The notes beneath the pieces were generated by a model. It saw only the letters and a list, made by a program, of their open reading frames with translations, ran no database searches and was not told where the DNA came from. 64,000 bases of DNA from contig JBLIRK010000005.1 in the NCBI GenBank assembly GCA_048569615.1, forward strand, positions 2,036 through 66,035, given 5' to 3'. Shown here piece after piece: positions 11,345-61,593 of the stretch. This DNA is from Thermoplasmatota archaeon (lineage in GTDB: Archaea; Thermoplasmatota; Penumbrarchaeia; Penumbrarchaeales; Penumbrarchaeaceae). The position numbers and the translations under genes were made by a program. The first letter of the stretch is position 1, and the number at the start of each line of letters is the position of its first letter.

Positions 11345-11592
11345 GGAACCAAGTATAAGAGTGTATTTAACCGATGTTCCTGAAAACTTATCATGGAAGG
11401 TGAAAAGGAGATATTTTCCGTTTTCATCCGATATCCGGTGACCGGATGTCCTTCAGGAATGCGGCGGAACTCAATATCGAACACGGGGACTCATCGAGGA
11501 AGAAGGGCCTTTGAGAGAAAGGTTAAATCCCCTTTTCCCCAATACTTCCAGGGGAGCTCAAGAAAATATTTCATGATCGGGGGAGCCTTAAT

Positions 11593-12531: not shown

Positions 12532-12600
12532 ATTTTACCTTCAACTTATGGAGTTATCATTGTACAGATTGATATGAATATAATTTAATATGCGTCTCAA

Positions 12601-12618
12601 TATCGTAAAGAAAGACGG
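12601..12618 (+). promoter_or_regulatory. Second copy of the leader motif TATCGTAAAGAAAGACGG, followed by GGGAGGG (SD-like)
   Basis: See 2978..2995. The A/T-rich ATATAATTTAATAT lies just upstream. Confidence 0.35.
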
Positions 12619-12651
12619 GAGGGAATAACTCTGAAGAACCTCAAGATCCTC

Positions 12652-39954: not shown

Positions 39955-40491
39955 ATGAAGGAAGGGGAGCTCGAAGCGTTTTTCATAGAGAGCGGATTTT
40001 CGGATTTCAAGTGGATCGATCCGAAGACGATCGTTCTTGCCCAGTGGGTCAGAATGAAATGCATGTACGGATGCGGCAGTTACGGTACGATCTCCACCTG
40101 TCCCCCGAACGTTCCATCGGTCACGGAATGTGAACGGTTCGTTAAGGAGTATTCCAGATGCGCGGTCTTCCATTTCGAGAAGAAGATGGACCACCCCGAG
40201 GACAGACATGAGTGGACCAGGGAGGTCAACCGGAAGCTCTATGAACTCGAATTGTTCCTTTTCAAATCAGGATATGTGAAGGCATTCCTGCTCCCGATGG
40301 ACACATGCGAGCTGTGCGGGTCCTGCGTTCCCACCAGACAGGACTGCAGACATCTGGAGCAGGCAAGGCCCACTCCGGACGCCCTCGGCATCGATGTCTA
40401 TTCGACCGTCCGGACCATCGGATACCCGATACAGGTGCTCTCCGATTACGATCAGACGATGAACAGGTACGCCTTTCTGCTGGTAGAATGA
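39955..40491 (+). CDS. DUF2284-like predicted metal-binding (Cys-rich) protein
   Basis: CMYGCGSYGTISTCPP and CELCGSCVPTRQDCRH motifs, 178 aa. Confidence 0.6.
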   Translation: MKEGELEAFFIESGFSDFKWIDPKTIVLAQWVRMKCMYGCGSYGTISTCPPNVPSVTECERFVKEYSRCAVFHFEKKMDHPEDRHEWTREVNRKLYELELFLFKSGYVKAFLLPMDTCELCGSCVPTRQDCRHLEQARPTPDALGIDVYSTVRTIGYPIQVLSDYDQTMNRYAFLLVE

Positions 40492-40523: not shown

Positions 40524-41096
40524 TCAACCCAATATCTTCTTTAGCTCGATGAGATCGCCTGACCTTCCATCGATCCTTGCCAGCAGTTCGGTCGGGTCGT
40601 CGTAATAGGGCATTATTCCGATGTTCCATTCACATCCACCATTATCGGACTTGTCTCCTAGGAGATAGAGGAACGTAAGATGGATGTCCTTTCCCTTTTC
40701 GATATAATCCCTGTTCGTTAGCTCCTGTCTTGCAGTTGACACTGCACTGGTGGAATCCACCGACCAGTTCCTCACGGGAGCCTTCGAGAGCGGCTCCCCT
40801 GTCTCCTCCTCTATGCTCCCGTCTCCTGAGACAGTGAAGGCGACCGAGCCCAGAGGGAAGCCCGATGTGACATCGTTGTAGGCGAACTTCCACTTAACCG
40901 CTCTCCCGTCGCTTCCGGGCTCAACCGCAGTGACGACGACAAGAGATAGCTCCTTTCCGGTCTGCTCAACCCTCGTCCTCACAGTGGGATGATGTTTGAA
41001 AGCGGACATGCCCTCTTCTTCCCCGGAGCTCCCCAGGCATCCGCATATGAAAAGAATTACCGCGGCTCCAGCGAAGAGAATTGGAATTCTATTCAT
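40524..41096 (-). CDS. Putative lipoprotein (signal peptide plus lipobox-like ICGCLG), last gene of the coupled cluster
   Basis: MNRIPILFAGAAVILFICGCLGSSGEE. ATGA overlap with the upstream activase gene. Confidence 0.5.
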   Translation of the reverse strand: MNRIPILFAGAAVILFICGCLGSSGEEEGMSAFKHHPTVRTRVEQTGKELSLVVVTAVEPGSDGRAVKWKFAYNDVTSGFPLGSVAFTVSGDGSIEEETGEPLSKAPVRNWSVDSTSAVSTARQELTNRDYIEKGKDIHLTFLYLLGDKSDNGGCEWNIGIMPYYDDPTELLARIDGRSGDLIELKKILG

Positions 41097-41896
41097 TTTT
41101 TCGCTTCGCCTCCGTGCTTTTCAAGATACTCGGCGGCAAGGATCGCCGCCCCTGTGGCTGTAACTATCTGAGGGTTCTCTGGAACGTGCATCTTCCTTCC
41201 CAGCTCCTTCTCCATCGCATGCACCATGCCTATGTTCTTCGCGGGCCCCCCGTCGAAGAATATCACATCCCTTATCCCAACCTTCTTGGCCATGGCTACA
41301 AGCCTTCTAGCCACGGCCTTGTGTATGCCCATGATTATATCCTCCTTGGGATGGCCCTGGAAGATGAGGTTCGCAACCTCGGACTTGGCGAATACCAGGC
41401 ATGTGGTTGTTATGTCCACAGGGTCCCTGCTGGTGAGCGAGATCGGACCGAGGTCGTCGAGGGGAACCTCAAGCACCTTTGCAAGCACCTCCAGGAACCT
41501 TCCCGTCCCGGCCGCGCACTTGTCGTTCATGGCGAAGTTGATCATCTGCAGGTCGTCGTCCAGTGCTATGACCTTTGTGTCCTGGCCCCCGATATCTATT
41601 ATGGTCCGGACATTCAGTTCGGAGCCCAGCCACTGGACCCCTCTTGCATTAGCAGAGATCTCGCTGATGTTGTGTTCAGCGAGGGAGGTCACCCTCCGAC
41701 CGTAACCTGTGGACATGATCATCTCGATCTCCTCCCTCCTGACACCAGCCATTGCCATGGCCTCGTCAAGGACCTTCCTCGATGTGATGTCGTGGTCGTG
41801 GCCTGTGGGAGCGACGCCGTGCCCAATCCTCTTCCCGTCCATGACTATGGCGGATTTCACGTAGGTGGATCCCAGGTCCACTCCGGCGGTCATCAT
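41093..41896 (-). CDS. HgdC/BcrA/BcrD-type ATPase (CoA-substrate-specific enzyme activase), copy B. ORF 41093..42382 is trimmed to Met at 41896.
   Basis: MMTAGVDLGSTYVKSAIV is the ASKHA phosphate-1 motif. NDKCAAGTGRF and TTTCLVFAKSE preserve the two Cys that bridge the [4Fe-4S] cluster in HgdC. TGATG overlap with the upstream gene. The 162 upstream codons of the ORF are Arg/Gly-rich low complexity overlapping the neighbour, so they are read-through. Confidence 0.85.
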   Translation of the reverse strand: MMTAGVDLGSTYVKSAIVMDGKRIGHGVAPTGHDHDITSRKVLDEAMAMAGVRREEIEMIMSTGYGRRVTSLAEHNISEISANARGVQWLGSELNVRTIIDIGGQDTKVIALDDDLQMINFAMNDKCAAGTGRFLEVLAKVLEVPLDDLGPISLTSRDPVDITTTCLVFAKSEVANLIFQGHPKEDIIMGIHKAVARRLVAMAKKVGIRDVIFFDGGPAKNIGMVHAMEKELGRKMHVPENPQIVTATGAAILAAEYLEKHGGEAKK

Positions 41897-42783
41897 CACT
41901 TCCACCTCAGCAGTCTGTCCAGCAGTTTTGTTCTCTCCACCTTCACTTCTCCCTTGTCGTTCTCCCTCAATTTCAACGGTGAGCTCCGGGGTCTGGGAGC
42001 CGATAAAGCAGCCCCCAGGGCCCCTACTAAATGCGGCTCCTCGGGCACCATCATCTCCCTGTTTATGTCCTTCCTTATTTCCTCCACCACTCCCTTGTTC
42101 CTGGCGACACCCCCGCAGATCATGACCTTCCCCTTGCTCTGCGTCGAATTCACCAGGGCGATAATCTTCCTTGCCACCATCTGGTGGAGGCCCGCAAGTA
42201 TGTCGTCGGTCCTCTTTCCCTTGGCGATCAAGGACACGACCTCCGATTCCGCGAACACCGTGCAGGTGGCGTTCACGTGCTCCGCCAGCTTCGAGTGCAG
42301 GGATCGCTCGCCGACGTCGCCGATCTCCATCTCCAGGGCCATCGCCAAGGTGTCCATGAAGCAGCCTGTCCCCGTGGAGCACTTGTCGTTGGTCCTGAAA
42401 TCCGAAATGATCCCCATATCTCCCATCCTCATGGCCCTTACTCCGTGCCCCCCAATGTCAACGACGATCTCAACGTCCGGAACTAGAAAGAACGCGCCCT
42501 TGGCGAAGGAGGTGATATCCGTACGGGCCATGTCGGCGAAATCCAGGGACCTCCTGCCCTGACCGGTCGCCACGATGTAGCCGATATCGTTTCTCTTCAA
42601 TCCTTTCTGTTCGAGGAGCTGCTCCATGAGCCCCGAGGCGAGCTTTCCGGGCTCCATGGTGGTGTTTCCCAATACCGAACCCGCCACCTCCTTCCCGTTC
42701 TCAAGGAGGAGCACTTTGGTGGAGATCGCGCCGACATCTATGCCCAGGTCGTAGGGCTTCCCGGAAATAATTTCCCCGCTCAT
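41896..42783 (-). CDS. HgdC/BcrA/BcrD-type ATPase (activase), copy A
   Basis: YDLGIDVGAISTKVLLL, NDKCSTGTGCF and VNATCTVFAESEV. ATGA overlap with the upstream HgdB-like gene. Confidence 0.85.
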   Translation of the reverse strand: MSGEIISGKPYDLGIDVGAISTKVLLLENGKEVAGSVLGNTTMEPGKLASGLMEQLLEQKGLKRNDIGYIVATGQGRRSLDFADMARTDITSFAKGAFFLVPDVEIVVDIGGHGVRAMRMGDMGIISDFRTNDKCSTGTGCFMDTLAMALEMEIGDVGERSLHSKLAEHVNATCTVFAESEVVSLIAKGKRTDDILAGLHQMVARKIIALVNSTQSKGKVMICGGVARNKGVVEEIRKDINREMMVPEEPHLVGALGAALSAPRPRSSPLKLRENDKGEVKVERTKLLDRLLRWK

Positions 42784-44099
42784 CTGCCTGCCTCTTTGAA
42801 CTCCCTTCTAGCCTTGATCATCTCGACGAAGGCCTCCACCCTCGTCCTTACCTGCTCTATGTCGCCTTCGTCGTATTCGGATTCCAGCTTCACCATTGGG
42901 ATGCCCATCTCCCTGAGCTCCAGCTCGATCTTCGTCGCTTCCAGATTGTTCAGGTGGCACCCCCTCAATGTATGGAACACGACCCCCTCGATGCCGTAGG
43001 CCTTGATGGAGGTCTTGAGCCTCCTTAGCCTGTCCTCGTTGGGGCTGAAACATGGACAGGTACACGGAAAGAAATACCTCTCCGCTATTGCCTGAAGCAT
43101 CTCCTTCATGGTCCATCCCTCCAGCATCACGGGATCGGACATCAGCCTGAAACCGGTGCAAAGCTCGTCCGTCACGATGGTCCCGCCGGATTCCTCTATG
43201 ACGGTGGGGATCTTGAAGTTGGGGTACATCATGGGAGAGCCCGCAAGGAGTATCCTGGCCGCGCCCTCCTCCCCCGCCTGTATCGCCTTATCCTGCATCC
43301 CGTTCAGTTCGGATAAGAGCTCCCTTACCTTCTTGTTCCATCTGTCTATCCGGTCTATCTGGGAAGCCTGGACCACGAGCATGGCATCCCTGCCGGAGAT
43401 GGGGGGCTTATCTTTCCTTCGGATCTCCAGGAGCTTTGTCCAGAGCTCATTGGACTCGTTCCATTTCTCCACTTCCCTTCTGAGCTTCCGTTTGGTTATC
43501 TTATTCCCTGTTAGCTCCTCCAGCCTCTTCTTCAGATAGACTATCTCCGATACCCATAGCTTCGATGAGGTCTCCCCGATCTTGACCCTGGGTATGTTCA
43601 TCATAACAACGGGGACGAAATCCTCCAGGATCTCGGCCAGCTTCATCTTGCCGTCGCAGGTCGCGGGTCCCGCGACCATGTCCACCAGGTCCGCCACCGG
43701 ATTGGAGGAAACCATCTTCGTTCCCAGGGTGGCCTTTACCATGGGGCACAATCCCGCATCCCCCAGGAGCTCGTTGGCCGGATGGACAGGCTCGTAATAA
43801 CCGGAGCACAACCTAAGCCCCTGGGCGCCTGCGGCGCTTATCAGCTCGTAGGGGACCATCACGCATAACGTGCCGACGACCTTCCCTCCCTTCTCCCTGA
43901 ACTCCTTGAGCTCCAGGTACCTTACGCCTCCGTAGCGGTGAACCTCGTCGAAGTAGTTCATGGCCTTTGCCCTGTTCTTCTGGGCCTTCAGGTTCTTCCG
44001 GGAGGCCTCCTCCATCTGCTCGGACCTCTTCCTGGTCCTCGTCCGCTGCTCCTCCGAGAAGTATCCTTCCTTGTCCTTGAGGTACCTGCTGGGCATCAT
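42780..44099 (-). CDS. 2-hydroxyacyl-CoA dehydratase / benzoyl-CoA reductase D-component-like protein (HgdB/BcrC/BadD family). The ORF track extends to 44240, but the start is at the Met overlapping the upstream stop.
   Basis: Family-typical length of about 440 aa. N-terminal LKEFREKGGKVVGTLCVMVPYELI. Cys-containing blocks LCPMVKATLG, ELCTGFR and FPCTCPCFSPNED. C-terminal GIEGVVFHTLRGCH. ATGA overlaps on both sides. Confidence 0.6.
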   Translation of the reverse strand: MMPSRYLKDKEGYFSEEQRTRTRKRSEQMEEASRKNLKAQKNRAKAMNYFDEVHRYGGVRYLELKEFREKGGKVVGTLCVMVPYELISAAGAQGLRLCSGYYEPVHPANELLGDAGLCPMVKATLGTKMVSSNPVADLVDMVAGPATCDGKMKLAEILEDFVPVVMMNIPRVKIGETSSKLWVSEIVYLKKRLEELTGNKITKRKLRREVEKWNESNELWTKLLEIRRKDKPPISGRDAMLVVQASQIDRIDRWNKKVRELLSELNGMQDKAIQAGEEGAARILLAGSPMMYPNFKIPTVIEESGGTIVTDELCTGFRLMSDPVMLEGWTMKEMLQAIAERYFFPCTCPCFSPNEDRLRRLKTSIKAYGIEGVVFHTLRGCHLNNLEATKIELELREMGIPMVKLESEYDEGDIEQVRTRVEAFVEMIKARREFKEAGR

Positions 44100-45088
44100 C
44101 CTCCTCCTTTTCTGCTCGTATCCTTCTTCTTCTTGTTGATGAGGCCGAGAGCGGTCCTCTTCGGCCTCTTCGAGCTCACGATCCCGAAGGGACCATACAT
44201 CAGGGACAGGCAGTCCTTCTCGGGGCAGAGCTCCACGCATCTGCCGCAGAGTGTGCAGTCCTCCCCGGCGACATCGTCCTTCTCCATGTCCTCGTACACC
44301 TTATCGTGGTCCAGGGGGCAGACCCTGAGGCAGACGCGGCATCTTGTGCATTTCTCCGGGTCCTTCTTCAGCCAGGCAAGGGACGCACCGCTCAGAAGCG
44401 CCATCGCCCCGCCCATGGGGCAGATGCGGCAGAATGCCATCTTGATGAAGAAGGACGCCACCAGGAACAGCACCAGAATGACCAGTGCAAGGACGGGAAG
44501 CGTCGTCGTCCACGGCTCCAGACCGAATATCTGCTGGGTGACCGTAAAGAAACCCTTTGCGGGACAGACCTGACAGAAGGGGAGCGCCAGCGTTGACTGG
44601 CAGCCCATGATACCAAGGGCGGATATGCCGATGGGAATCGAAAGAAGGATCGTAAGGAAGATTATCACGTACTTGATCCGCCGGAGAACGACCCTGTGGC
44701 TCCATCTCAGCTTGTATGCGGGGATACCTGTCCTCTCCCGGAGCCACCCCATGAACTCCTGGACCATCCCGAAGGGGCAGAGCCAGGAGCACCAGAGCCT
44801 TCCCAGAAGGATGATCAGTATCAGGACCACCATGACCATGATCAGCACGTCAACGTAGCTGTTGTAGTAGCCCTGTGTGAGCCCGTCCTGGAGCTGATAA
44901 TAGAAGCAGGATGTCGGTGTGGTGTTGATATACCTGCAGGAGGCGTTGGGAAGGAATATCCTGCGGAGAAGGGGATATGTTCCAAAAGGGGGGAGACCGA
45001 GGAGCTGGCTTAGAATGAAACCCAGGGCAAGCCCCTGGACCGCGAACCTCCAAGGCCTGATCCTTGTCCCCTTGAACTCCCCCTTCAC
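44096..45088 (-). CDS. NapH/MauN-like membrane polyferredoxin: TM helices, a CSWLCPFG motif and two C-terminal 4Fe-4S ferredoxin motifs. The start is uncertain; GTG 45088 is proposed.
   Basis: LWCSWLCPFGMVQEF is the NapH/FixG-type motif. CQVCPAKG, CRICPMG, CTRCRVCLRVCP and CTLCGRCVELCP are present. The first 105 codons of ORF 44096..45403 are Arg/Gly-rich and overlap the upstream gene, so they are rejected. GTG at 45088 abuts the upstream stop (GTGA). Confidence 0.65.
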   Translation of the reverse strand: MKGEFKGTRIRPWRFAVQGLALGFILSQLLGLPPFGTYPLLRRIFLPNASCRYINTTPTSCFYYQLQDGLTQGYYNSYVDVLIMVMVVLILIILLGRLWCSWLCPFGMVQEFMGWLRERTGIPAYKLRWSHRVVLRRIKYVIIFLTILLSIPIGISALGIMGCQSTLALPFCQVCPAKGFFTVTQQIFGLEPWTTTLPVLALVILVLFLVASFFIKMAFCRICPMGGAMALLSGASLAWLKKDPEKCTRCRVCLRVCPLDHDKVYEDMEKDDVAGEDCTLCGRCVELCPEKDCLSLMYGPFGIVSSKRPKRTALGLINKKKKDTSRKGGG

Positions 45089-46380
45089 CCCCGTGCCCTC
45101 CTTTTCCTGATATGGTGTATCCAGAGCCTTGAAAGGACGGCAAGCTGGGCGATGAGGACAGCCACCAGCGCAAGCTGTACCACCTTCATCCACTGGACCA
45201 GGTCGTCGATCTCGCCGAGCACCGCCTCCGTCCTCTTGGTCTTTCCGTCGATAATATATACGTGGGGGGTGACGTAGCCCGATGTGTAATCGCCTTTGCC
45301 TATGTATCCGCCCTGTCCGGCGATTATCTCCATTTCCCCGTCCCTGTCCGGATCGGCGATCACGACACCCAGCACATCCCTTCCGAGCTCCCCGGAGGTC
45401 CATTCCAGGACCCTTGTCTCGGCATCGTAGACCCTGATGTAACCCGCCATGTTCGAAACGACGATCTCCAACGTCCCGTCGTCATCGACGTCCCCGATAT
45501 CGAGCCCGTAGGCCTTCGGGCCGATGTTCCCGCTCTTCCATACCTGGACGAAGTCATTGCCGTCGTAGGTGAAGATGAAGCACCATCCGTCCCTGTACCT
45601 GTACCCGTTTGAAACCACCATCTCCAGGACTCCGTCGCCGTCGAGGTCCACGACCTTCAAACCTTCAACACATCCTCCGAGATCGGGGCTCTTCCATTTC
45701 AGATCCCCAGTTTCCAGGTCGAATATCCTGATGTAGCCCTCTCCCCGGATATCTCCGAGCGACACTCCGGATGTGACGATCAGCTCCTCCTTCCCGTCCT
45801 GGTCAAGGTCGGCGATATCGATCTCCCTCAGCCTCGAATCGAAGGGCTCGAGCTCCCTGTAGGGATCGGATGAATTGTGCTCGAAGAAGTAGACCTGCCC
45901 CCATCCCTGGTCCGTCTTGAAACCCGACCCTACGATGAGCTCGTTCTCGCCGTCCCCGTCGACATCATGGAGGAGCAGGCCGTGGGCATCCCTGACTAGA
46001 GTCACTGATTCCCATTCGATCTCCTTCGTCCGTCCGTCCAGTGCCCTGACGTTCCCGTCACCGTCCCCGATGATGATCTCCATGGAATCGTCATTGTCGA
46101 ACTGGCCGGCCCTGAGGCCCCAGCACCGGGTCCCGAACCTGGGTGAGGTCCAGTCAACGGAGTAATCACCCCCGGCATATTCGACGGAGGTCACGTATCC
46201 GTCGTAAGAGCCGAAAAGTATCTCGTCCCTTCCGTCTCCGTCAACATCCTCGCATATGATGGACTGGAACCTTCCGATGCCGGAGGTGAGCTCCCTGGGC
46301 TCCACCACGGCTGATGCGGGCTGAAAGAATATCATCATCATCAGCAGGATGCAAAGGAAGTGAGGGAACCGCCCCTTCAT
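45085..46380 (-). CDS. FG-GAP/VCBS beta-propeller protein with signal peptide and C-terminal TM anchor. ORF 45085..46581 is trimmed to Met 46380.
   Basis: MKGRFPHFLCILLMMMIFFQPASA is a signal peptide. Blades EDVDGDGRDEILFGS, HDVDGDGENELIVGS, ADLDQDGKEELIVTS, VDLDGDGVLEMVVSN, GDVDDDGTLEIVVSN and ADPDRDGEMEIIAG. C-terminal LALVAVLIAQLAVL then RKRRARG. The trimmed start gives an ATGA overlap with the upstream stop. Confidence 0.7.
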   Translation of the reverse strand: MKGRFPHFLCILLMMMIFFQPASAVVEPRELTSGIGRFQSIICEDVDGDGRDEILFGSYDGYVTSVEYAGGDYSVDWTSPRFGTRCWGLRAGQFDNDDSMEIIIGDGDGNVRALDGRTKEIEWESVTLVRDAHGLLLHDVDGDGENELIVGSGFKTDQGWGQVYFFEHNSSDPYRELEPFDSRLREIDIADLDQDGKEELIVTSGVSLGDIRGEGYIRIFDLETGDLKWKSPDLGGCVEGLKVVDLDGDGVLEMVVSNGYRYRDGWCFIFTYDGNDFVQVWKSGNIGPKAYGLDIGDVDDDGTLEIVVSNMAGYIRVYDAETRVLEWTSGELGRDVLGVVIADPDRDGEMEIIAGQGGYIGKGDYTSGYVTPHVYIIDGKTKRTEAVLGEIDDLVQWMKVVQLALVAVLIAQLAVLSRLWIHHIRKRRARG

Positions 46381-47573
46381 CCCCTGGACCTCCGGATCTC
46401 CCTGTATGCGGGATAGAAGAATGCGACCAAGGCAGCTGCCCCGATAATGATGAGGGATACGGCGGTGATGGTCCCGATGGGAAGTCCGTCCCCCTCTCCC
46501 GCTTCGCCGCCGAATCCGTAGAGTATGACGGTATGGCTCTTTCCCAGTCCAGAGGCCAGGAACCTGCCGTCCGGGGACCACCTTGACATCATCACCATGG
46601 CATGCTGCTCCATACCGTCCTTGATCACTTTCAGTTCGGTACCGGTCACGGAATCCCTTATCTTCAGAGTGAGGTCAACACCGGAGGTGGCAGCTATCTC
46701 CTGAAAGGGGTGGAAATCGACGGACCTGACGCAGTTGTTGTCGGACCATGTGGCGAGGATCTCGCCGGTGGATGAGTTCCAGACCTTGATCTTGTAATCC
46801 CTGGAGCCGGTGATGAGCCTTGAATCATCCGGAGACCAGTCGATGTCCAGAACACCTGTGGTATGCCCGGTCGCGTTCATCACCTCGGTCCTTGTGGAGA
46901 ACTCCATGATCCTTATCATCCTGTCATCGGATGCGGATGCGAGCCTGTCACCCTCGTTCGACCATCTCACTGCGAGCACTCCATCCCTGTGCCAGTTGAG
47001 GGTGTGGTAGAGCCTGCCTGTCTGCATGTCCCATATGCGGACAGCGTTCTCCTCCTGGTTCTGCGGGATGACCTTGTCCCTCCCCGAGCCGGACGCCAAG
47101 TATCTGCTGTCAGGGGAGAAATCGAGGCAGAGGATGGAGCCGGAGTGCCCCCTCAGCATGTACTTCTCCTCCCAGGTCGCCGTATCGAACACGGTTATAA
47201 TGCGGTCGTCCCCGCCCACAGCCAGGAGCTTTCCGTCGGGGGAGAAGCAGCAGGCGCGGAGCGGATTCGTCCCCTCGGGGGAGAACCCGTCGCATCTCGT
47301 ATCCTCCGGGACGAGGTCGAGCACGGTCCTGATCCCACCGTCAGTGGCGTTCAGAACCACGCATTTATCGTCGAAGAACGTGGCGGCGATCATCGATCCG
47401 TCGGGGGACCACGACAGCTTCCAGAATGTCGCCTCGCTGTCCTCCTTGGTGTACATCCAGATGACCTCCGCCCTTGCCGGATCTATTTCCGCTACCTGGG
47501 CTGCTGCGGGATTCAAGGGCAGAAGGAGGATGAGCAGTCCGAATGCTGTCGCCGGAATGACGGCTATTTTCAT
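46377..47573 (-). CDS. WD40-repeat beta-propeller protein with signal peptide and C-terminal TM anchor
   Basis: LRGHSGSILCLDFSPDSRYLASGS, VRIWDMQTGRLYHTLNWHRDGVLAVRWS and TGHTTGVLDIDWSPDDSRLITGSRDYKIKVWN. N-terminal MKIAVIPATAFGLLILLLPLNPAAAQ. C-terminal AVSLIIIGAAALVAFF then REIRRSRG. Confidence 0.8.
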   Translation of the reverse strand: MKIAVIPATAFGLLILLLPLNPAAAQVAEIDPARAEVIWMYTKEDSEATFWKLSWSPDGSMIAATFFDDKCVVLNATDGGIRTVLDLVPEDTRCDGFSPEGTNPLRACCFSPDGKLLAVGGDDRIITVFDTATWEEKYMLRGHSGSILCLDFSPDSRYLASGSGRDKVIPQNQEENAVRIWDMQTGRLYHTLNWHRDGVLAVRWSNEGDRLASASDDRMIRIMEFSTRTEVMNATGHTTGVLDIDWSPDDSRLITGSRDYKIKVWNSSTGEILATWSDNNCVRSVDFHPFQEIAATSGVDLTLKIRDSVTGTELKVIKDGMEQHAMVMMSRWSPDGRFLASGLGKSHTVILYGFGGEAGEGDGLPIGTITAVSLIIIGAAALVAFFYPAYREIRRSRG

Positions 47574-49231
47574 GTAAGCACCTCCCTCTCCTCGTTCCGG
47601 TTCCTCAAGTAAACAACTAAGGTGACGAATCCGGTTAGCAAGTTCAGGCCGGCGATCACCGCTATTATGATACCGTTGCTCAAGCGACCGCTTTTATCGA
47701 CTGTTGACGAAGCTGTTTCGTCATCTGCCTCCTCCCCGGGCTCCACGATTACATTGGCGGAGGCCGTTCCCGGCTCCAACCCTTCCTTCACGACTTCCAA
47801 TTCGATATTGACCGTCGACCTCGAGCTGACCCTGATGGGGAAGTAGAATACCTCGACCTCCCCCTCCTCGTTGGTCAAGTATTTCAACCTCGTATTGCCA
47901 TCCTTGTCAAAGGCAATGTACCCAGCGGAAATGGAGAAGGTGACCTCAGCTCCCTCGACGGGGGAGCCCTCGTTATCGGTCACCCTTACGATCATGGATG
48001 TGGAATTGTCGGAGGTTATCTCCTTATCCGTTGTGTTGATGGCCGCAGACAGACCGGGCGGGCGGACCCCAACGCAGTAAACGGACCGGTCCGAGGAGCC
48101 GAAATATACCCTTTCCAGGTAGATGACGGGTGATGAATAGACATAACCCCCGGTCGAGAAGGTCCATACCAGGTCCCCGTTGGTCTCGTTGAAGCAGTAG
48201 AGGTTGTAGTCGTCGGAGCCGATGAACAATTTCCCATCCGAGACCACGGGGGACGAGCCCCCCTGGAAATCATGGGTGGGGGAGGACCAGATCACCTCGT
48301 CTTCGGAGATGTTGCCGTCCGAATCAGGGTCATCGATCGGAAGGCACCATGTGTACTCGAAGGACCCGAAGAATACCCTGTCATCTCTGACGATCGGTGT
48401 GGAATAGGTATCGTGGCCAGTGAAGAAGGACCATTTAATATCCATGGTATCCGGGTCCACATTGTAGATCCTCTGGTCCATCCCTGCGGTCAGCAGCAGA
48501 TTATCATCATGGAGCACTCCGGAGGAATACACCTCGGCATACTCCCCGAACTCCACCTTGTCCAGTACCTCTCCGTCGTCCAGCGATAGCCTGTAGAGGC
48601 TCCTTCCGGTGTCCCCGATGAAGAGCACCCCCCTTTCCTCGTCTACGATCCCCGAGGCCCAAATGGGAAGGTCGGATATCGGAGACCTCCAGATCTCCTG
48701 TCCCTCCTTAGATAATCTGTACACGATCCCGGCCAGGTCCGAGAAGATGACCGAATCCCCGAAGGCGTGGGCCGAGGATTTGATCTCTCCCTCGGTCTCG
48801 AAGGACCAGAGGGTCTCAGGTTCGGAGGTCGATCCCTCCGGTGGAAGCGAGATGCAGTAGAAATTGCGGTCAAGTGATCCGAAATATCCCCTGCCATTCT
48901 CCAGAAGGACCGTTGCTTGTACATCGTCCCCCGACTTGAACTTCCAGTTCATACTCCCGGTCACGGGGTCCAGGCAGTAGACCCAGTCGTCCTCCGAGCC
49001 AATGACCAGACCGCCTGGGTAGAAAGTGGGAGAGGAGAGAACCTGACTCCCGGTGTCGAAGGACCATATCAATTCGCCCTTCTCAGGAGCATCCCCGTCT
49101 TCAAGGGCCAGGTGCAGGGGGTCCCCCCTCCACTGGCTCCATGCGCCCTCTGAGGGATCCGAACCCGTGAAGGATATAAAGAGGAGGAGAACTAGGATGG
49201 CCGCCGCTGTGATCTTGGAAATAGAGCTCAT
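47570..49231 (-). CDS. PQQ-like (BamB/YxaL-type) beta-propeller repeat protein with a C-terminal Ig-like domain and TM anchor
   Basis: Repeats of the type (W/Y)(S/K)F.TG..(V/I).SSP. and the linker GDLVWTFSTGGYVYSSPVIY. Signal peptide MSSISKITAAAILVLLLFISF. C-terminal IIIAVIAGLNLLTGFVTLVVYL then RNRNEE. Confidence 0.7.
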   Translation of the reverse strand: MSSISKITAAAILVLLLFISFTGSDPSEGAWSQWRGDPLHLALEDGDAPEKGELIWSFDTGSQVLSSPTFYPGGLVIGSEDDWVYCLDPVTGSMNWKFKSGDDVQATVLLENGRGYFGSLDRNFYCISLPPEGSTSEPETLWSFETEGEIKSSAHAFGDSVIFSDLAGIVYRLSKEGQEIWRSPISDLPIWASGIVDEERGVLFIGDTGRSLYRLSLDDGEVLDKVEFGEYAEVYSSGVLHDDNLLLTAGMDQRIYNVDPDTMDIKWSFFTGHDTYSTPIVRDDRVFFGSFEYTWCLPIDDPDSDGNISEDEVIWSSPTHDFQGGSSPVVSDGKLFIGSDDYNLYCFNETNGDLVWTFSTGGYVYSSPVIYLERVYFGSSDRSVYCVGVRPPGLSAAINTTDKEITSDNSTSMIVRVTDNEGSPVEGAEVTFSISAGYIAFDKDGNTRLKYLTNEEGEVEVFYFPIRVSSRSTVNIELEVVKEGLEPGTASANVIVEPGEEADDETASSTVDKSGRLSNGIIIAVIAGLNLLTGFVTLVVYLRNRNEEREVLT

Positions 49232-49339: not shown

Positions 49340-50626
49340 CTATCCCTTTCTTATCCTCCTGTATCTCTTCCAGAATACGGCGAGGATGACACCGATGATG
49401 ATCGCGACTGCAAGGGCGAGGAAGAGCATATCCCTGTTTGCGCTCACCTCCCGCCCGATATCGAATGCGTCGTCCCCATCATCATCATCGGTAACCGGAA
49501 TGTTCTGCCTGAGGCATCTTACATACCCGTTCCTGTCCCCGAAGAAGACCTTGGAGCCGTATGCCGACGGGGAGACCTCGCTGGCATCCCCGTATTCGAA
49601 GCTCCGGTAGATGCTTCCGTTCCCCATATGGACCATGACCAGCCCCTGTTCACAGGTCGCATATACGAGCTTCCCGCCTATTACGGGGGATGTCTCAAGC
49701 TGGGAAGGACCGAGGTCAAGGGTCCATTCTATCGAACCATATTCTGCATCCAGGCAGTAGAGGAGCCCGTCATTGGCCCCGACCATAACCTTCTCGGCGT
49801 TTACGGCAGGTGAGGATTGGATGTCGCCTCCCAGGGCGGTGCTCCAGATGAGCTCCCCGTCCCCGGCGTCAAGGCAGTACATGTTGCTGTCGTAGGAGCC
49901 GAAATATATCCTTCCTTCCATGATCGCGGGTGAGGATGGAATGTAAGCAGCGGAGAAGTTCCATTTATGCTCCCCGGTCAATGCATCCAGACATCTCAGC
50001 ATCCCGTCGCAGGAACCGAAATATAGGTTGTTGTCATGGACGGCAGGGGTTGTGTGTATCCATCCCTGGCATCCGATGTAATCCCAAGAGGGGGTCCCAT
50101 CCGGTTTCAGGCTGTAGAACTTAGAATCATAGGATCCGAAATAGATCATGTCGCCGGGTCCGTTGGGGGAGGAAATGATCTCCTTCCCCGATCCCGTATC
50201 AAAGGTCCATAGCTGCGCTCCTTCTTCCATGGAGAGCGCCGTCACCATACCAGAACTGTCGCACACTGCGAGATCGTTCGTTTCCTCGATATACAGGGGT
50301 GTCGAGAATATAGGTGCTCCGACGTTGTAGCTCCATTCCAGGCTCCCGAACTCCGAATTCAGCTTGTAAACCGTCCCGTTGGAGGTGCCGAACACGCACC
50401 AGCCTTCCTCAGCGATGACTGCGGTGCCGATGGATGAATCCGCCCGGAACTCCCAGGACAGGAAGACCTCTCCCTTCAACGGATCTGAAAGGTCGGTGGT
50501 GGTTCTTCCCGTATTCGACGGATCTCCCCTGAAGCTGTTCCAGCCTAGCGCAGCGGGACCCGCAACCATCAATATCGACAGGAGAATCGAAAGGATCGCC
50601 CCTGTCCTTCCAGGGGAGCACTTCAT
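49340..50626 (-). CDS. Second PQQ-like beta-propeller repeat protein with signal peptide and C-terminal TM anchor; the ORF could extend to 50698
   Basis: MKCSPGRTGAILSILLSILMVAGPAALG is a signal peptide. Repeats LEWSYNVGAPIFSTPLY, QLWTFDTGSGKEIISSP, HKWNFSAAYIPSSPAI and LIWSTALGGDIQSSPAV. C-terminal LALAVAIIIGVILAVFW then KRYRRIRKG. Confidence 0.7.
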   Translation of the reverse strand: MKCSPGRTGAILSILLSILMVAGPAALGWNSFRGDPSNTGRTTTDLSDPLKGEVFLSWEFRADSSIGTAVIAEEGWCVFGTSNGTVYKLNSEFGSLEWSYNVGAPIFSTPLYIEETNDLAVCDSSGMVTALSMEEGAQLWTFDTGSGKEIISSPNGPGDMIYFGSYDSKFYSLKPDGTPSWDYIGCQGWIHTTPAVHDNNLYFGSCDGMLRCLDALTGEHKWNFSAAYIPSSPAIMEGRIYFGSYDSNMYCLDAGDGELIWSTALGGDIQSSPAVNAEKVMVGANDGLLYCLDAEYGSIEWTLDLGPSQLETSPVIGGKLVYATCEQGLVMVHMGNGSIYRSFEYGDASEVSPSAYGSKVFFGDRNGYVRCLRQNIPVTDDDDGDDAFDIGREVSANRDMLFLALAVAIIIGVILAVFWKRYRRIRKG

Positions 50627-50678
50627 GGAGATAGAACCAGTTCGACTGGGATTAAAAGCTTGCGCTCTCATAAGTTCG

Positions 50679-53600
50679 TCACCTTCTGAATACCGCATCG
50701 TATCCCTTCACCGCCCACATCGAGGAGGCGATGCCTATTACGAGGGAGGCCAGAAGAAAACCTCCGGGGATCAGGATTATGGGTGCCGCCATATCGGGGG
50801 TCAGGAAGGCAGAATCGGACATGGTGAAAAAGACGAGTGCTCCCGCCGCCGATCCCGCAATCGCACCTAGCAGAGCGATCATGAAGACCGCCAGGTTCTC
50901 CAGCAGGAAATACATGACGGATCTTCCTTTGGGGGCCCCTATTGTCCTCAGCAGGGAGATCTCCTTTCTCATGTCCACGGCCCTCGCATGGGTGAAAACA
51001 ACAGCCGAGGCGAGGGAGAGTATCACGCCCAGCAAGAGGAAGTCCCGGAACAGGTAAAGGTACGAGAGCTCGTACCTGGCATTTTCCAGGGCAAGGTCCC
51101 TGACCGGCGTTATCAGGGGAGAGAAATCCTCGAAGATCCCCTCAACGGCTTCCTTGCCCCCTCCGTTCGCCCTGACTAGGAAATAATCCGGTGCGGCCGT
51201 GGAGGGGAAGAGGTCCTTCAGAAAGGTAGAAGAGAGAACGAAGCTCCCGGTGAACACGGAGGACTCCAGGACACCCACGACAACAAGGGTCACCCTCTCT
51301 CCGTTCTCGGTGTCCAGCTTGAACTCCGAACCCAGCTTCTCGTAGTATATCCATGCAAGTGTGTTCTGATCCACGAGGATGGGTATCCTTCCGTCGATCT
51401 TCGAATGGAGCATCTCCCAAGCTTCCTTATCGCTTCCCATGCCCTTTCTTCTCTCCATAAGCCCGAAGCCCGATACGTTCGAGAAGCCCTCCCGGACACC
51501 AAGGAGCCTGGGAGGATAGACGGCATTGACGTTGGAGCAGGTCCCCCCCTCCGAGCCGACGGAGAGCAAGGATTCAACATCCATTGCTCCGGACCGCAGC
51601 TCTCCCCTGAAGGGAACCGGGAGCTCCACCACGTAATCGAATCCGCCCCCGTAATCGCCTATCCCATCCTCCGCATCCGCTTCTAGCATGGCACCGATAA
51701 CGGTCAGTGAGAGTGAAATGGTGAGAGCCATGGCAAGGATGGAGATGGTAAGCGGATGCTTCCTCGGCCTTCTCGTGATATTGGCGCTCACAATGAGAAG
51801 CAGATCGCTTCTTCTGGACACCCTTGACGCAATAAGGTAGATAAGGAGAGCGGTCCCGGCTGAAAACACGATGGAGCCCAGTGTGAACAATAGTCCCTTC
51901 GCATAGATATCATCGGAACCGGAGCCAGACACAAGCAGGGCAATACCAATTATGATGGATGCCCCCGAAGCTCCGAAGTGGAGAAGCCTGCCTCTCATTG
52001 TCGGGCTTCCCACGGAGATGTCCTCTTCCCTCAGGTTGACCGCGGGAACACTGCCGGTCTCCCTCCAGACCGCAATGAGGGACAGGACCATGGATGAGAT
52101 CACTCCGATCGATATCGAGATGAGGACAGTGCCTGCCGAGACCGAGAAGGGGACGGAGGAGTTCTCAACGGAATCAGACCAGGCCGAGGAGAGCCCCGCG
52201 TTCAGGACGAAGGAGAATACGAATCCCACCGGCAGTCCGATAAGGCTTCCCGCCACGATGCTCCAGGCGGATTCGACCAAGGCCGCCTGGAACAGCCCTC
52301 TCCTTCCGGCCCCTATCGAGCGGAGTATCCCCCACTCATGTGACCGTCTAGCCGCCATATCCTTGATCACGGCATACAGCGTAAGGAGGGCACCGGCGAT
52401 CATTACCGTTCCGAATGAAAGGAACATTCCCGGAAAGATGAGCATGGCGCGGGATGATTCCAGAGCCCTTTCCCGGACGGGGACCAGGCTGATACCCATC
52501 GAAGAGTGGTCAAGCCCGTCCCCAATATTATCTAATTCTCCTTGGACATCCTCTCCCCGGACCAAGAGAGCGTTTGAATCACCGTAGCTTCCCGCCCACA
52601 TCTCCCTTGCGTCCTCCAGGCTCACGAAGCATTTTGGGGTTGTCCTGTAAATGTCCCAGTATTCGAGGTCTGCCTCCCCGAGAGAATCGAGGTCTAGGTC
52701 GAATGATGGATCCCACTCGTTGCAGGACGGGGCATCAGTCACCCCCTCGATCGGGGGCAGGAATCCCGGCTCCATACCGATTCCGGTCATGTTGTAGACG
52801 GCGGCGACCCTGAACGTCCTTTCCTCCTCCCGCAGCTCCCCGAGGAGGGTCACCTTCCTGTAGGAGACCACGATATCATCACCGATGGAAAGCCCCATCC
52901 TTTCGGCGGTCCAGTTGTTGACCGCTATTTCGCCGGTTCCCGGCAGGGGGCCGGATCCTTGAGGTCCAATCATCTCGAGCTCCTCCATCAGACCGGGCCG
53001 GACCCCGGAGACAACGGAATACGAGAGCTCCCCGTTCCCGGATGCCAGTGAATCAACGAAATACGAGAGCGAGAGCCCTTCATTCCCTTCTTCCGTCAGG
53101 TCCGTCTCGTCGAAGAACAGGCCGTCGCTGTAGATGAAGGAGCCTCCGCTGGATAGGGATCCCACCACCCTGAAGCCCGCCTCATCTAGACCCACGGCGT
53201 CGTCAAGAAGGGACATTATGGAATCCATGATCTTTCCCGAGCCGCCGTCCGATACGGTATCTATCAGTACCGTGTTCACCTTCCCGACGATCCCCAGCCT
53301 CTCCTGAACGAGTCCGATATCGACCACCAGGATCGGCTCCACCTTTGCGAGGGAATCCGTCCTGAACCTTCCGATACCCCGGTTCTCGATCACAGCCTCC
53401 ACCGTAAGGTTCAGGGTGATCCTGTCGGACCTGTCAAAACCGAGAAGGCTCTCCTCCCTGGTGGAAAAGGAGGGTACCGATATCCTGATGCCTCCGCCGC
53501 TGCCCTCTTCCAATTTCTTCGAGAGCTCCCTGTTGACGTAGCACCCGTACCTCGGTGGAGCACCCAAGTTATCGGATGATTCCGCCTCTACGGCACCCAG

Positions 53601-54086
53601 CATTTCTAGGTCGTCGTCATCGACGGCCATCAACTTGATGCCGACCGACGATCCCCCTTCCAATTCAGTCCCGATTCCATCGAGGAGGATCAGCGAGCAG
53701 AATGAGTCCACACCCTCGATATCCCCTATTCCTGCCCTTTCCATGAGGGCCTCCGGGACGTACCCCGGGGCCGAGATCATGATGTCAACGCCGGACAGGT
53801 TTGCAGCGGTGTTCTCCTCCACCATCTTCAGAAGGCCGTCGCCGACCGAGAGGGATGCAAGGAATATGCCTACCAGAAGAGCAACAGGAAGCCCCCTGGC
53901 TATACCGGGGCCGAGAGACCGCATTGCGAATTTCATGCCAACGCCCGAAGCCGCTCTGCCCTGCCTTGTCAGCGATCCCGCGATCGCCATAATGAAAAGA
54001 AGGAATACCGCGGCGGAAATCGTAAGGATCGGTATCCAGCCCGGCACCAACTCCATGTTTTTCAATCGGCAAGCGGATATATCCAA
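50679..54086 (-). CDS. Double-module FtsX/MacB-family ABC-type permease (1135 aa) with two large extracytoplasmic domains; no ATPase gene adjacent
   Basis: Two FtsX-like 3-TM bundles are each preceded by a conserved amphipathic segment, (I)LRSIGAGRRGLFQAALVES.. and (L)LRTIGAPKGRSVMYFLLENL... An N-terminal TM is followed by a roughly 450-aa extracellular region. Confidence 0.75.
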   Translation of the reverse strand: MDISACRLKNMELVPGWIPILTISAAVFLLFIMAIAGSLTRQGRAASGVGMKFAMRSLGPGIARGLPVALLVGIFLASLSVGDGLLKMVEENTAANLSGVDIMISAPGYVPEALMERAGIGDIEGVDSFCSLILLDGIGTELEGGSSVGIKLMAVDDDDLEMLGAVEAESSDNLGAPPRYGCYVNRELSKKLEEGSGGGIRISVPSFSTREESLLGFDRSDRITLNLTVEAVIENRGIGRFRTDSLAKVEPILVVDIGLVQERLGIVGKVNTVLIDTVSDGGSGKIMDSIMSLLDDAVGLDEAGFRVVGSLSSGGSFIYSDGLFFDETDLTEEGNEGLSLSYFVDSLASGNGELSYSVVSGVRPGLMEELEMIGPQGSGPLPGTGEIAVNNWTAERMGLSIGDDIVVSYRKVTLLGELREEERTFRVAAVYNMTGIGMEPGFLPPIEGVTDAPSCNEWDPSFDLDLDSLGEADLEYWDIYRTTPKCFVSLEDAREMWAGSYGDSNALLVRGEDVQGELDNIGDGLDHSSMGISLVPVRERALESSRAMLIFPGMFLSFGTVMIAGALLTLYAVIKDMAARRSHEWGILRSIGAGRRGLFQAALVESAWSIVAGSLIGLPVGFVFSFVLNAGLSSAWSDSVENSSVPFSVSAGTVLISISIGVISSMVLSLIAVWRETGSVPAVNLREEDISVGSPTMRGRLLHFGASGASIIIGIALLVSGSGSDDIYAKGLLFTLGSIVFSAGTALLIYLIASRVSRRSDLLLIVSANITRRPRKHPLTISILAMALTISLSLTVIGAMLEADAEDGIGDYGGGFDYVVELPVPFRGELRSGAMDVESLLSVGSEGGTCSNVNAVYPPRLLGVREGFSNVSGFGLMERRKGMGSDKEAWEMLHSKIDGRIPILVDQNTLAWIYYEKLGSEFKLDTENGERVTLVVVGVLESSVFTGSFVLSSTFLKDLFPSTAAPDYFLVRANGGGKEAVEGIFEDFSPLITPVRDLALENARYELSYLYLFRDFLLLGVILSLASAVVFTHARAVDMRKEISLLRTIGAPKGRSVMYFLLENLAVFMIALLGAIAGSAAGALVFFTMSDSAFLTPDMAAPIILIPGGFLLASLVIGIASSMWAVKGYDAVFRR

Positions 54087-54254: not shown

Positions 54255-54293
54255 GTGAAATGTTCATTTTGGGGTGAAGAGAGCCGTGGGACC

Positions 54294-55952: not shown

Positions 55953-56749
55953 GGTTCCTGGTGCTCGTTAAACAGGTGCCTGACACAACCGAGGTGAGGA
56001 TAGATCCCAAGACCAATACCCTGATCAGGGAGGGCGTTGAGAGCATAATGAATCCCTACGACCAGTTCGCGCTCGAGGAAGCTCTAAGGCTCAAGGCCTC
56101 CAGGGAGGATGTCAGGGTCACGGTTCTTTCAATGGGCCCGCCCCAGGCAAGAAGGGTGCTCCTGAAGGCCCTTGCCCTGGGAGCGGACGATGCCGTGCTC
56201 CTTTCCGACAGGGCATTTGCGGGCTCTGACACCTGGGCTACATCCGTGGCCATTTCCAAGGCTATTAGGAAGATGGGAAAGGCGGATGTTGTATTCTGCG
56301 GGCTCCAGGCCATAGACGGGGACACCGCCCAGGTGGGACCAGAAACTGCCCAGCTGCTCGGGATTCCCCAGATAACATACGCGGAATCCGTCGAGGTCGA
56401 AAGCGGGAGCATCAGGGCAAGACAGCAGACGGAAGAGGGAGTAAGGATCTTGAAATGCATGATGCCGGTTCTCGTCACTTGCGTTCCTCCTCCTTCCTTT
56501 ATGCCCAGGATCGCTCCCTTGAAGGGCATCGTCGAGGCCGGTGATAAGCCCTACGAGGTCTGGGACATAAGACACATTGAAGGAGATCCGGCCGAGGTCG
56601 GTTTAAAGGGCTCCCCCACCCAGGTGAAAAGGACCTATTCCCCACCCGCCAGAGGTGGTGTCATGATTGTCGAAGGCTCTCCCAGGGAAGCGGCAGCCAG
56701 ACTTGCAGGCATCCTTTTCGATCGCAAGCTCATAGGGGAGGTGAGGTAG
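55949..56749 (+). CDS. etfB: Electron transfer flavoprotein beta subunit
   Basis: MRFLVLVKQVPDTTEVRIDPKTNTLIREGV...NPYD is the canonical EtfB N-terminus. Confidence 0.9.
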   Translation: MRFLVLVKQVPDTTEVRIDPKTNTLIREGVESIMNPYDQFALEEALRLKASREDVRVTVLSMGPPQARRVLLKALALGADDAVLLSDRAFAGSDTWATSVAISKAIRKMGKADVVFCGLQAIDGDTAQVGPETAQLLGIPQITYAESVEVESGSIRARQQTEEGVRILKCMMPVLVTCVPPPSFMPRIAPLKGIVEAGDKPYEVWDIRHIEGDPAEVGLKGSPTQVKRTYSPPARGGVMIVEGSPREAAARLAGILFDRKLIGEVR

Positions 56750-61518: not shown

Positions 61519-61593
61519 ATTAACAGCTCCGAAACCAACCTGAGTCCAATATCTTGGTGTATTATTAATCGTTTTAGGTAACGCCCAGTATGG

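Follow-up and report, generated by a model that had tools for sequence, protein, structure and literature searches.

A NapH-like polyferredoxin gene coupled to double-cubane-cluster protein genes in archaea and bacteria, and its proposed role at the membrane

Introduction

What does a membrane-bound polyferredoxin do between the genes of an ATP-driven cytoplasmic enzyme module and those of a series of cell-surface beta-propellers? The question arises from a 64,000-nucleotide (nt) stretch of DNA of a Thermoplasmatota archaeon (contig JBLIRK010000005.1), to which we refer as the window and whose internal coordinates are used throughout. The polyferredoxin gene (44096..45088, minus strand) has a GTG start and a TGA stop and codes for 330 amino acids (aa); the gene that directly follows it codes for a predicted double-cubane-cluster protein (DCCP). 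DCCPs use ATP to drive reductions at very low potentials, and no physiological role has been established for them (PMC7317905). What we describe here is a distinct clade of NapH-like proteins whose genes show translational coupling to those of DCCPs in both archaea and bacteria, within clusters for the handling of substrates at the cell surface or in the periplasm. The arrangement suggests that the DCCP enzyme acts at the membrane, in concert with proteins of the cell surface. We propose, with a confidence that is evenly balanced, that the polyferredoxin would be the membrane subunit of a DCCP reductase system and would act as an electron relay that links the cytoplasmic module with a cysteine site on the extracytoplasmic side.

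A translationally coupled operon

Seven consecutive 4-nt overlaps of the ATGA or GTGA type run through window positions 41093-47573 (minus strand), from the junction of the first PQQ-type propeller with the WD40 propeller, through the FG-GAP propeller, the polyferredoxin, the DCCP and two activase genes, to the gene of a 190-aa protein. Most of these junctions have a GGAGG-like motif 5-12 nt upstream. On the basis of the seven overlaps we consider the genes to form one translationally coupled operon, and the chain of coupling is unusually long. At the polyferredoxin itself, the GTG start (45088-45086) shares three bases with the upstream FG-GAP gene at its TGA (45087-45085), which gives GTGA, and the TGA that terminates the open reading frame on the minus strand (44098-44096) overlaps the downstream ATG (44099-44097), which gives ATGA. 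Both overlaps had been pointed out in the initial annotation of the window, and both can be read directly from the sequence.

The gene downstream (42780..44099, minus strand) begins with the ATG that overlaps the polyferredoxin stop, and codes for a 439-aa protein of the HGD-D fold. It scores 360.2 bits with the DCCP model NF040772 (cutoff 350) and matches Pfam HGD-D with an expectation value (E) of 2.7e-96. All seven cysteines of a DCCP are present, with a spacing of CX18CX19CX29CX165CX33CX32C; compared with the pattern in the Haft preprint (CX19CX18-19CX29CX166-170CX32-34CX32C; 10.1101/2022.07.06.499078), two of the six spacings, the first and the fourth, differ by one residue. The protein is best described as a probable DCCP rather than an ordinary HgdB, and would bind an [8Fe-9S] cluster. 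The earlier label of “HgdB-like radical enzyme” needs to be changed accordingly. An N-terminal extension of 40-70 residues, basic and probably helical, is present in DCCPs encoded after a polyferredoxin (window 43920-44099, minus strand, and L001-L075). It ends with a conserved M-x-Y-F-D/Y, lies ahead of the region covered by the DCCP model and might be a docking element; in the window it has about 60 residues.

Two activase (“archerase”) ATPase genes come next, subunit 1 at 41896..42783 and subunit 2 at 41093..41899 (both minus strand), joined by a GTGA overlap. Both are assigned to BcrAD_BadFG by Pfam and reach 195 and 240 bits, respectively, with TIGR00241 (cutoff 125), so that a cognate ATPase is adjacent to the DCCP. 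Since the ATPase is split over two genes in the window, it is probably a heterodimer. The last gene of the operon (40524..41096, minus strand; ATGA overlap) codes for the 190-aa protein, which is lipoprotein-like and has a homologue in L009.

On the upstream side lie four beta-propeller genes, all on the minus strand: FG-GAP (45085..46380), WD40 (46377..47573), a PQQ/BamB-like propeller (47570..49231) and a second PQQ/BamB-like propeller (49340..50698), the start of which is uncertain. Each product has an N-terminal signal peptide, a C-terminal transmembrane helix and a short basic tail, and for this reason we place all four as anchored on the outside of the cell, in agreement with their earlier description as surface proteins. 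The PQQ-type matches correspond to BamB-like scaffolds and fall far below dehydrogenase cutoffs. The first gene of the conserved cluster (50679..54086, minus strand; start uncertain) codes for a polytopic protein that has about 1135 aa and contains two FtsX-like domains, and it is conserved in L001, L002, L006, L010 and L013. This protein is MacB/LolCE-like, and no ABC ATPase gene adjoins it in the window or in the related loci. Cytochrome-based extracellular electron transfer was considered and set aside, as no CxxCH haem motif occurs in any protein of the operon. Pfam scans found no soluble ferredoxin gene in the operon.

Conservation of the gene order

The compared loci, most of which come from metagenome-assembled genomes, are cited here by L numbers. 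In Thermoplasmatota, the order FtsX-like, PQQ propeller(s), WD40, FG-GAP, polyferredoxin, DCCP and activases recurs in every locus with enough sequence (L001-L007 and L009-L017), down to a polyferredoxin identity of 38%. The initial annotation had cast the polyferredoxin as the bridge between the ATP-driven module and the ectodomain proteins. In Thermoplasmatota it does always sit between the two, but the bridging itself is read from synteny. A few variations on the arrangement were observed. In L004 the DCCP is fused with one activase subunit (10957-13230; 757 aa), and both L004 (9279-10001) and L007 (8620-9363) have an extra gene for about 240 aa, with no Pfam match, between FG-GAP and the polyferredoxin. 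A DsbD_2 gene lies close to the cluster of L004 (2882-3523), and tblastn found no DsbD_2 in the window.

A more distant set of 66 loci, mostly from bacteria and Bathyarchaeia, has polyferredoxins of 28-37% identity. A DCCP gene comes directly after the polyferredoxin in 25 of these; 22 of the 25 go on with a single activase, and none has propellers. The polyferredoxin and DCCP genes mostly overlap by 4-11 nt at these distant junctions, and are otherwise at most 17 nt apart. The DCCP-linked polyferredoxins cluster in coherent blocks when ordered by neighbour joining. Because the link to the DCCP extends to bacteria without propellers, it is tighter and older than the link to the propellers.

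The full bacterial cluster consists of genes for a TonB-dependent receptor, a DUF4198-like protein, the polyferredoxin, the DCCP, an activase, DsbD_2, ExbB, ExbD and TonB, in this order, and is carried by L036, L041, L031, L021, L019 and L050 (e.g., L041:6719-15286). L036 comes from the cultured delta proteobacterium NaphS2, a possible experimental entry point. Bacterial homologues without a DCCP have the receptor, the DUF4198-like protein and the polyferredoxin, followed by DsbD_2 or ExbB. Taken as a whole, the gene orders indicate that the polyferredoxin-DCCP pair is the widespread core, and that the extracytoplasmic partners are lineage-specific, although in every lineage they are envelope proteins that handle substrates. 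In Bathyarchaeia and other lineages there are also longer polyferredoxins of 570-615 aa (L083:9260-10960, L046:9101-10816, P0129, P0156, P0177 and others), which have an N-terminal extension of roughly 250-300 residues without an assigned fold; in L083 a NosD-like gene is next to it.

Topology and conserved cysteines

Conservation was assessed on an alignment of 105 sequences that includes bacterial relatives and that also served as input for an AlphaFold2 (AF2) model, and charge bias was calculated for 76 family members. Hydropathy gives four hydrophobic segments, at residues 15-33, 78-96, 142-160 and 197-215, which are nearly free of charge over the 76 sequences. These correspond to transmembrane helices TM1 (44990..45046), TM2 (44801..44857), TM3 (44609..44665) and TM4 (44444..44500), all on the minus strand, and each is found by hydropathy, charge bias and the AF2 model. 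TM1 is preceded by a basic N-terminus with 5 lysines and arginines in 14 residues. Across the 76 sequences, the regions placed inside have a high density of lysine plus arginine per residue (N-terminus 0.30, loop B 0.17, C-terminal part 0.165), and those placed outside a low one (loop A 0.06, loop C 0.04). This bias clearly points to an N-in, C-in topology. N-glycosylation sequons (N-X-S/T) are confined to outer loop A, with 0.92 per sequence, and loop C has none. The AF2 model has a mean predicted local distance difference test score (pLDDT) of 87.5 and a predicted template modelling score of 0.83; its helices agree with hydropathy (TM1 is modelled as a helix at 10-30), and there is a short helix on each Cys motif. 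Four transmembrane helices and two cytoplasmic termini are therefore the predicted topology, and an arrangement with no transmembrane helices, which would have spoken against a membrane role, is not what we find.

With this topology, both termini, the two ferredoxin motifs and the two Cys-Pro motifs of the membrane module would lie in the cytoplasm. The first of the membrane motifs is a CX3CP (C100-SWL-C104-P105; 44774..44791, minus strand) at the cytoplasmic end of TM2, and the second is a CX2CP (C220-RI-C223-P224; 44417..44431, minus strand) at the cytoplasmic end of TM4. They are the first and second Fer4_5 signatures, respectively. The ferredoxin motifs are C247-X2-C-X2-C-X3-C257-P258 (44315..44350, minus strand) and C278-X2-C-X2-C-X3-C288-P289 (44222..44257, minus strand), both within the Fer4_10 match. 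All four motifs are invariant in the 105 sequences. The canonical CX2CX2CX3CP thus occurs only twice, and not in the four copies that had been counted in the initial annotation.

On the outward side there are only four cysteines. C51 and C61 are in outer loop A (residues 34-77; 44858..44989, minus strand), which also has the sequons N48-A-S and N55-T-T. C172 and C175 are in outer loop C, where they form the motif C172-QV-C175-P176 (44561..44575, minus strand) within LALPFCQVCPAKGFF. The four are conserved at 95-96% in the close family and at 90% or more in the 105-sequence alignment (at least 90-96% for the loop C motif). The earlier idea of an electron shuttle between the two faces of the membrane is therefore borne out as far as a NapH-like polytopic protein is concerned, but the canonical iron-sulphur (Fe-S) motifs and both termini are all predicted on the cytoplasmic face.

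Family placement

Pfam assigns the polyferredoxin Fer4_5 (PF12801) in two stretches (E 1.1e-17; 64.1 bits against a gathering score of 22) and one Fer4_10 dicluster domain (E 1.8e-9). Together with the four transmembrane segments, the Fer4_5 score places the protein in the NapH-like superfamily. An NCBI protein (P0001, “MAG: 4Fe-4S binding protein [Thermoplasmatota archaeon]”) is 100% identical over all 330 aa. Given the Pfam matches and this identical full-length protein, the gene is real and so is its CSWLCPFG motif, far above chance; the motif, which the initial annotation had singled out, is at residues 100-107. Homology to E. coli NapH (b2204) is clear, with 25% identity over 279 aa and an E of 2e-18.

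The protein does not reach any of the more specific models. It scores 94.4 bits with the NapH equivalog model NF007013 (cutoff 234), 90 bits with the NapH/MauN subfamily model TIGR02163 (cutoff 213) and 55.8 bits with the NosR model (cutoff 1000), and the CcoG/FixG/RdxA model TIGR02745 is not among the best 25 of its 39 matches at E <= 0.01. The bacterial relative L036 behaves likewise, with 77 and 83 bits for the NapH and NapH/MauN models, both below the cutoffs, and 21 bits for TIGR02745 (cutoff 316.7). For these two proteins, the window protein and L036, no NCBIfam model reached its cutoff. Of the “NapH/FixG-like” identity that had been assigned at first, the part that holds is a NapH-like membrane protein of PF12801; membership of NapH/MauN and likeness to CcoG/FixG do not.

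What sets the clade apart is the second membrane motif, which is CX2CP in 88 of 88 homologous loci, where E. coli NapH has CGHICP. All eight cysteines of the membrane module are kept in 86 of the 88, of which 80 (L009-L088) came from a genome scan with patterns containing two of the Cys motifs. When 1.84 billion representative sequences were searched with a profile, 241 matched at E <= 1e-30 and 5162 at E <= 1e-10; the clade is small and distinct inside a large superfamily. A PDB sequence search with the family profile and a Foldseek search with the AF2 model found no solved structure of the membrane module, and matched the ferredoxin domain only. Pfam found no flavin mononucleotide (FMN)-binding domain and no ApbE in the polyferredoxin or in the scanned operon proteins, and the operon has no napG, napA or other nap or mau genes.

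The translation start

The longest open frame through the gene is 44096..45403 (435 aa, ATG start), which adds 105 in-frame codons (45089..45403, minus strand) ahead of the GTG. This stretch lies inside the FG-GAP gene in a different frame, is rich in Arg and Gly, and is not part of the translated protein. The initial annotation had reached the same view of these codons; it had also called them annotated, which they are not, since they are merely part of the longest open frame and the NCBI protein already begins at the GTG. A Shine-Dalgarno-like GGAGG (45097..45101, minus strand) can be read from the sequence 8 nt before the GTG.

The related loci bear out the short gene model. In nine of 12 related Thermoplasmatota loci, the homologous position holds a start codon that forms a 4-nt overlap. 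L001, L002 and L012 use ATG and the remaining loci GTG or TTG, and the codon usually precedes an A, hence the ATGA, GTGA or TTGA overlap with the upstream stop. The open frame 5' of this start ranges from 8 to 132 codons across the related loci, and among those compared, the ATG at -105 is present only in the window and in its closest relative, L001. In addition, homologues have lengths of 323-345 aa, and most of the approximately 80 closest relatives are 300-360 aa long. We considered the 105 codons as a true N-terminal domain and rejected this: similarity elsewhere is only weak, is off-frame, and lies within the conserved FG-GAP gene of close relatives, and in other loci the frame is closed or has no start codon. 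A start further downstream, at the methionine of MVMVV, would remove TM1, and was rejected as well. Residues 14-61, ahead of MVMVV, are conserved at the protein level (including R14, L46, P47, C51 and C61), and TM1 is therefore translated. The GTG at 45088 is the correct start, and the upstream extension is a longest-frame artefact.

Proposed function and its alternatives

Our proposal divides the work of the polyferredoxin between the two faces of the membrane. At the cytoplasmic face, the ferredoxin domain would trade electrons with the DCCP and its activase, and would dock the module to the membrane; the ferredoxin gene in the benzoyl-CoA reductase cluster is a precedent for a ferredoxin domain that feeds a DCCP/activase type of module. 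The inner pairs C100/C104 and C220/C223 and the outer pairs C51/C61 and C172/C175 would form the route for reducing equivalents across the membrane, with the four outer-loop cysteines acting as a dithiol/disulfide, or as a metal or Fe-S site. This outer site would serve a substrate held by extracytoplasmic partners, which would be the four anchored beta-propellers and the FtsX-like protein in this archaeon, and the TonB-dependent receptor, the DUF4198-like periplasmic protein and DsbD_2 in bacteria. Several published observations are in line with this scheme. The first Cys motif of NapH is needed for docking of the cytoplasmic NapF (PMC5928378), and activases are reduced by ferredoxin or flavodoxin (PMC7317905). 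NapH-like proteins of PF12801 are proposed as modular transmembrane electron-transfer units (PMC8238504). Clusters of DUF4198 and TonB-receptor genes with a membrane reductase have been tied to iron assimilation (PMC8238504, PMC3751524). As for the direction of flow and the nature of the substrate, our guess, held with low confidence, is that electrons go from the cytoplasm to the outside (i.e., reductively) and that the substrate is a metal or metalloid species.

A more specific form of the proposal, which we think rather unlikely as it stands, is that the polyferredoxin serves as the outlet of an electron pump energised by ATP. The activase and DCCP would bring the electrons to a very low potential, and the polyferredoxin would carry them outward through stacked cysteine/Fe-S sites and so reduce a recalcitrant extracytoplasmic substrate, e.g., a mineral-bound or chelated metal or metalloid, held by the propellers in Thermoplasmatota or by the TonB-receptor/DUF4198 proteins in bacteria. 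If true, this would be the first physiological role for the orphan double-cubane enzymes.

A number of points weigh against electron relay by the polyferredoxin. The functional link to its neighbours is read from gene order. An adjacent DCCP is absent at 41 of the 66 distant homologues, and hence the membrane protein can work without one. All canonical Fe-S motifs are cytoplasmic, and the outward redox candidates are four cysteines that could equally well be structural disulfides; outer loop A, which holds two of them, is the least confident part of the AF2 model (pLDDT 62-76). The bacterial DUF4198-like protein, of about 350 aa, has matches that are under the Pfam gathering score. For L009-L088, conservation of the two Cys motifs is partly by construction, since these motifs were in the retrieval patterns. 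To our knowledge there is no precedent for spending ATP on electrons that are then exported. Finally, the function of the CX3CP-type motif is unassigned even in NapH, NosR and RdhC (PMC5928378).

The most serious competitor, which we consider possible though clearly on the unlikely side, needs no transmembrane electrons. The polyferredoxin would be a tethered ferredoxin and an anchor only: the 2x[4Fe-4S] domain would feed the activase and hold the DCCP at the membrane, where imported substrate appears, and the outer cysteines would be structural disulfides. Such an anchor would fit the solely cytoplasmic location of the canonical Fe-S motifs, the use of ferredoxin or flavodoxin as electron source by activases (PMC7317905), the tight coupling to the DCCP across phyla and the bacterial neighbours, which are uptake components (TonB-dependent receptor, ExbBD, TonB and DsbD_2). 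However, the conservation of four outer cysteines at 90% or more in very distant members, including a CX2CP that mirrors the inner motifs, exceeds the need of an anchor, and many homologues without a DCCP retain the same eight cysteines. In addition, relatives in the superfamily are thought to hand electrons to extracytoplasmic partners (PMC8238504).

Could the protein instead be a true NapH-type quinol dehydrogenase, one that oxidises or reduces membrane quinol and, much as NapGH serves NapAB, connects the quinone pool with the DCCP module or with a redox partner outside the cytoplasm? We find this improbable. NapH is described as a menaquinol dehydrogenase (PMC5928378), and the homology to E. 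coli NapH is backed by a shared architecture of four transmembrane helices, two Cys motifs and a dicluster domain. Against these similarities are the scores far under the NapH and NapH/MauN cutoffs, the CX2CP instead of CX3CP as second motif, the four extra outer cysteines, and an operon without a NapG-like exported polyferredoxin, NapA or a haem (CxxCH) protein. Moreover, established potentials imply that transfer from quinol to the low-potential cluster of the activase would be strongly uphill.

Reversal of the flow is more doubtful again. An extracellular donor at the propellers would feed the polyferredoxin, and the activase would then boost the electrons with ATP for a difficult reduction by the DCCP in the cytoplasm. 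The synteny is the same as for our proposal, and an ATP-driven module needs an electron source, for which the operon offers no soluble ferredoxin gene. Yet the surface proteins include no recognisable oxidase-like or cofactor-binding enzyme, the PQQ-type matches being BamB-like scaffolds, and the bacterial counterparts are uptake components, not oxidases. Lastly, that the polyferredoxin is a chance neighbour, functionally unlinked to the propellers and the DCCP module, is barely credible in view of the seven 4-nt overlaps that tie the operon, the identical archaeal gene order down to 38% identity, and an adjacency that recurs in 25 distant, mostly bacterial loci.

Relay of electrons by a membrane subunit thus remains the reading that we prefer. 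It offers a concrete and testable lead on the role of DCCPs, pointing to a substrate at the cell envelope, to metal or metalloid regulation and to transmembrane electron transfer. For genome annotation, the short gene model with the GTG start is confirmed.

Surroundings of the operon

The window as a whole is rich in genes for cell-surface proteins. Just downstream of the operon region is the gene of a giant protein of 2316 aa with at least 13 FG-GAP repeats (31567-38517, minus strand), and in L006 and L007 the cluster is likewise flanked by large surface proteins of the FG-GAP, PKD and PQQ types. Two further large proteins of the surface type are encoded at 57952-63942 (minus strand), one of 1188 aa with a transglutaminase core and Big domains, and one of 782 aa with Big_7 domains. 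On the opposite strand, a gene for a DUF2284 “predicted metal-binding protein” (39955-40491, plus strand; E 7e-46) adjoins the end of the operon.

Divergent from the operon is a set of genes (54255-57940, plus strand) for an acyl-CoA dehydrogenase, EtfB, and an EtfA with an N-terminal ferredoxin domain. Such a set is typical of electron-bifurcating Bcd/Etf complexes and might supply reduced ferredoxin. In L001, too, an acyl-CoA dehydrogenase gene adjoins the cluster.

Comparison with known systems

The closest known protein is NapH of E. coli and W. succinogenes. Both it and the window protein have four transmembrane helices with an N-in/C-in topology, a CX3CP after TM2, a Cys-Pro motif after TM4 and two C-terminal ferredoxin motifs. 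NapH touches the cytoplasmic Fe-S protein NapF and the extracytoplasmic Fe-S protein NapG (PMC5928378), and the contacts proposed for the window protein would be of a similar kind. In E. coli NapH both membrane motifs are CX3CP and the outer cysteines are missing, in contrast to the CX2CP second motif and the four outer cysteines of the window protein. The window operon lacks NapG, NapA, NapB and NapC, and the partners are the DCCP/activase module and the anchored propellers.

The flavinylated NapH-like systems (NosR, RdhC/PceC and others; Meheust et al. 2021, PMC8238504; Buttet et al. 2018, PMC5928378) have in common with the window a PF12801 module beside extracytoplasmic partners, and their proposed role is to carry electrons between the outside and pools in the cytoplasm or the membrane. 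They differ in that the window protein has four outward loop cysteines in place of a flavin domain, in an operon with neither an FMN-binding protein nor ApbE, and in that its cytoplasmic partner is an ATP-dependent DCCP, which is not described in the accessible text of PMC8238504.

DCCP systems (Jeoung and Dobbek; PMC7317905, PMC9351452) share with the window a protein above the DCCP model cutoff and BcrAD/HgdC-type ATPases encoded next to it; all seven cysteines are present in the window protein, in a spacing within one residue of the published pattern. However, those described are soluble and have two components, whereas the window has a membrane partner gene, two ATPase genes and a DCCP with the basic N-terminal extension of approximately 60 residues. 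The words “membrane” and “polyferredoxin” each occur zero times in the text of the DCCP review. In the accessible text on Haft's selenoprotein “SAO” locus, which involves DCCPs and was considered as a match, “NapH” and “FtsX” likewise occur zero times, so that the window cluster differs from it.

In the bacterial relatives, the polyferredoxin occupies the same genomic slot as the PepSY-like/VciB-type inner-membrane reductases of TonB-receptor/DUF4198/DUF2271 clusters for iron assimilation (PMC8238504, PMC3751524), namely that of the membrane redox protein after a TonB-dependent receptor and a DUF4198-like secreted protein. The two are unrelated in fold and cofactors, the DUF4198 matches here are sub-threshold, and the archaeal version has no TonB system. 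A ferredoxin in the equivalent position is seen in the bcrCBAD-fdx cluster of Thauera aromatica, where the electron donor of class I benzoyl-CoA reductase is a 2x[4Fe-4S] ferredoxin whose gene neighbours those of a BcrAD-type ATPase and a reductase of the HGD-D fold. That ferredoxin is small and soluble, while the ferredoxin domain in the window is fused to a four-helix membrane module.

A NapH-like protein that bridges cytoplasmic and extracytoplasmic redox partners is therefore an already known kind of system. The searchable literature, outside of which most subscription papers lie, gave no specific prior description of a DCCP-polyferredoxin-TonB or DCCP-polyferredoxin-propeller cluster. As far as this literature shows, three features are new: the clade with a CX2CP as second motif and four outer cysteines in place of a flavin domain, the conserved way in which it is coupled to a DCCP/activase module, and its envelope context, which is one of anchored propellers in archaea and of a TonB system in bacteria.

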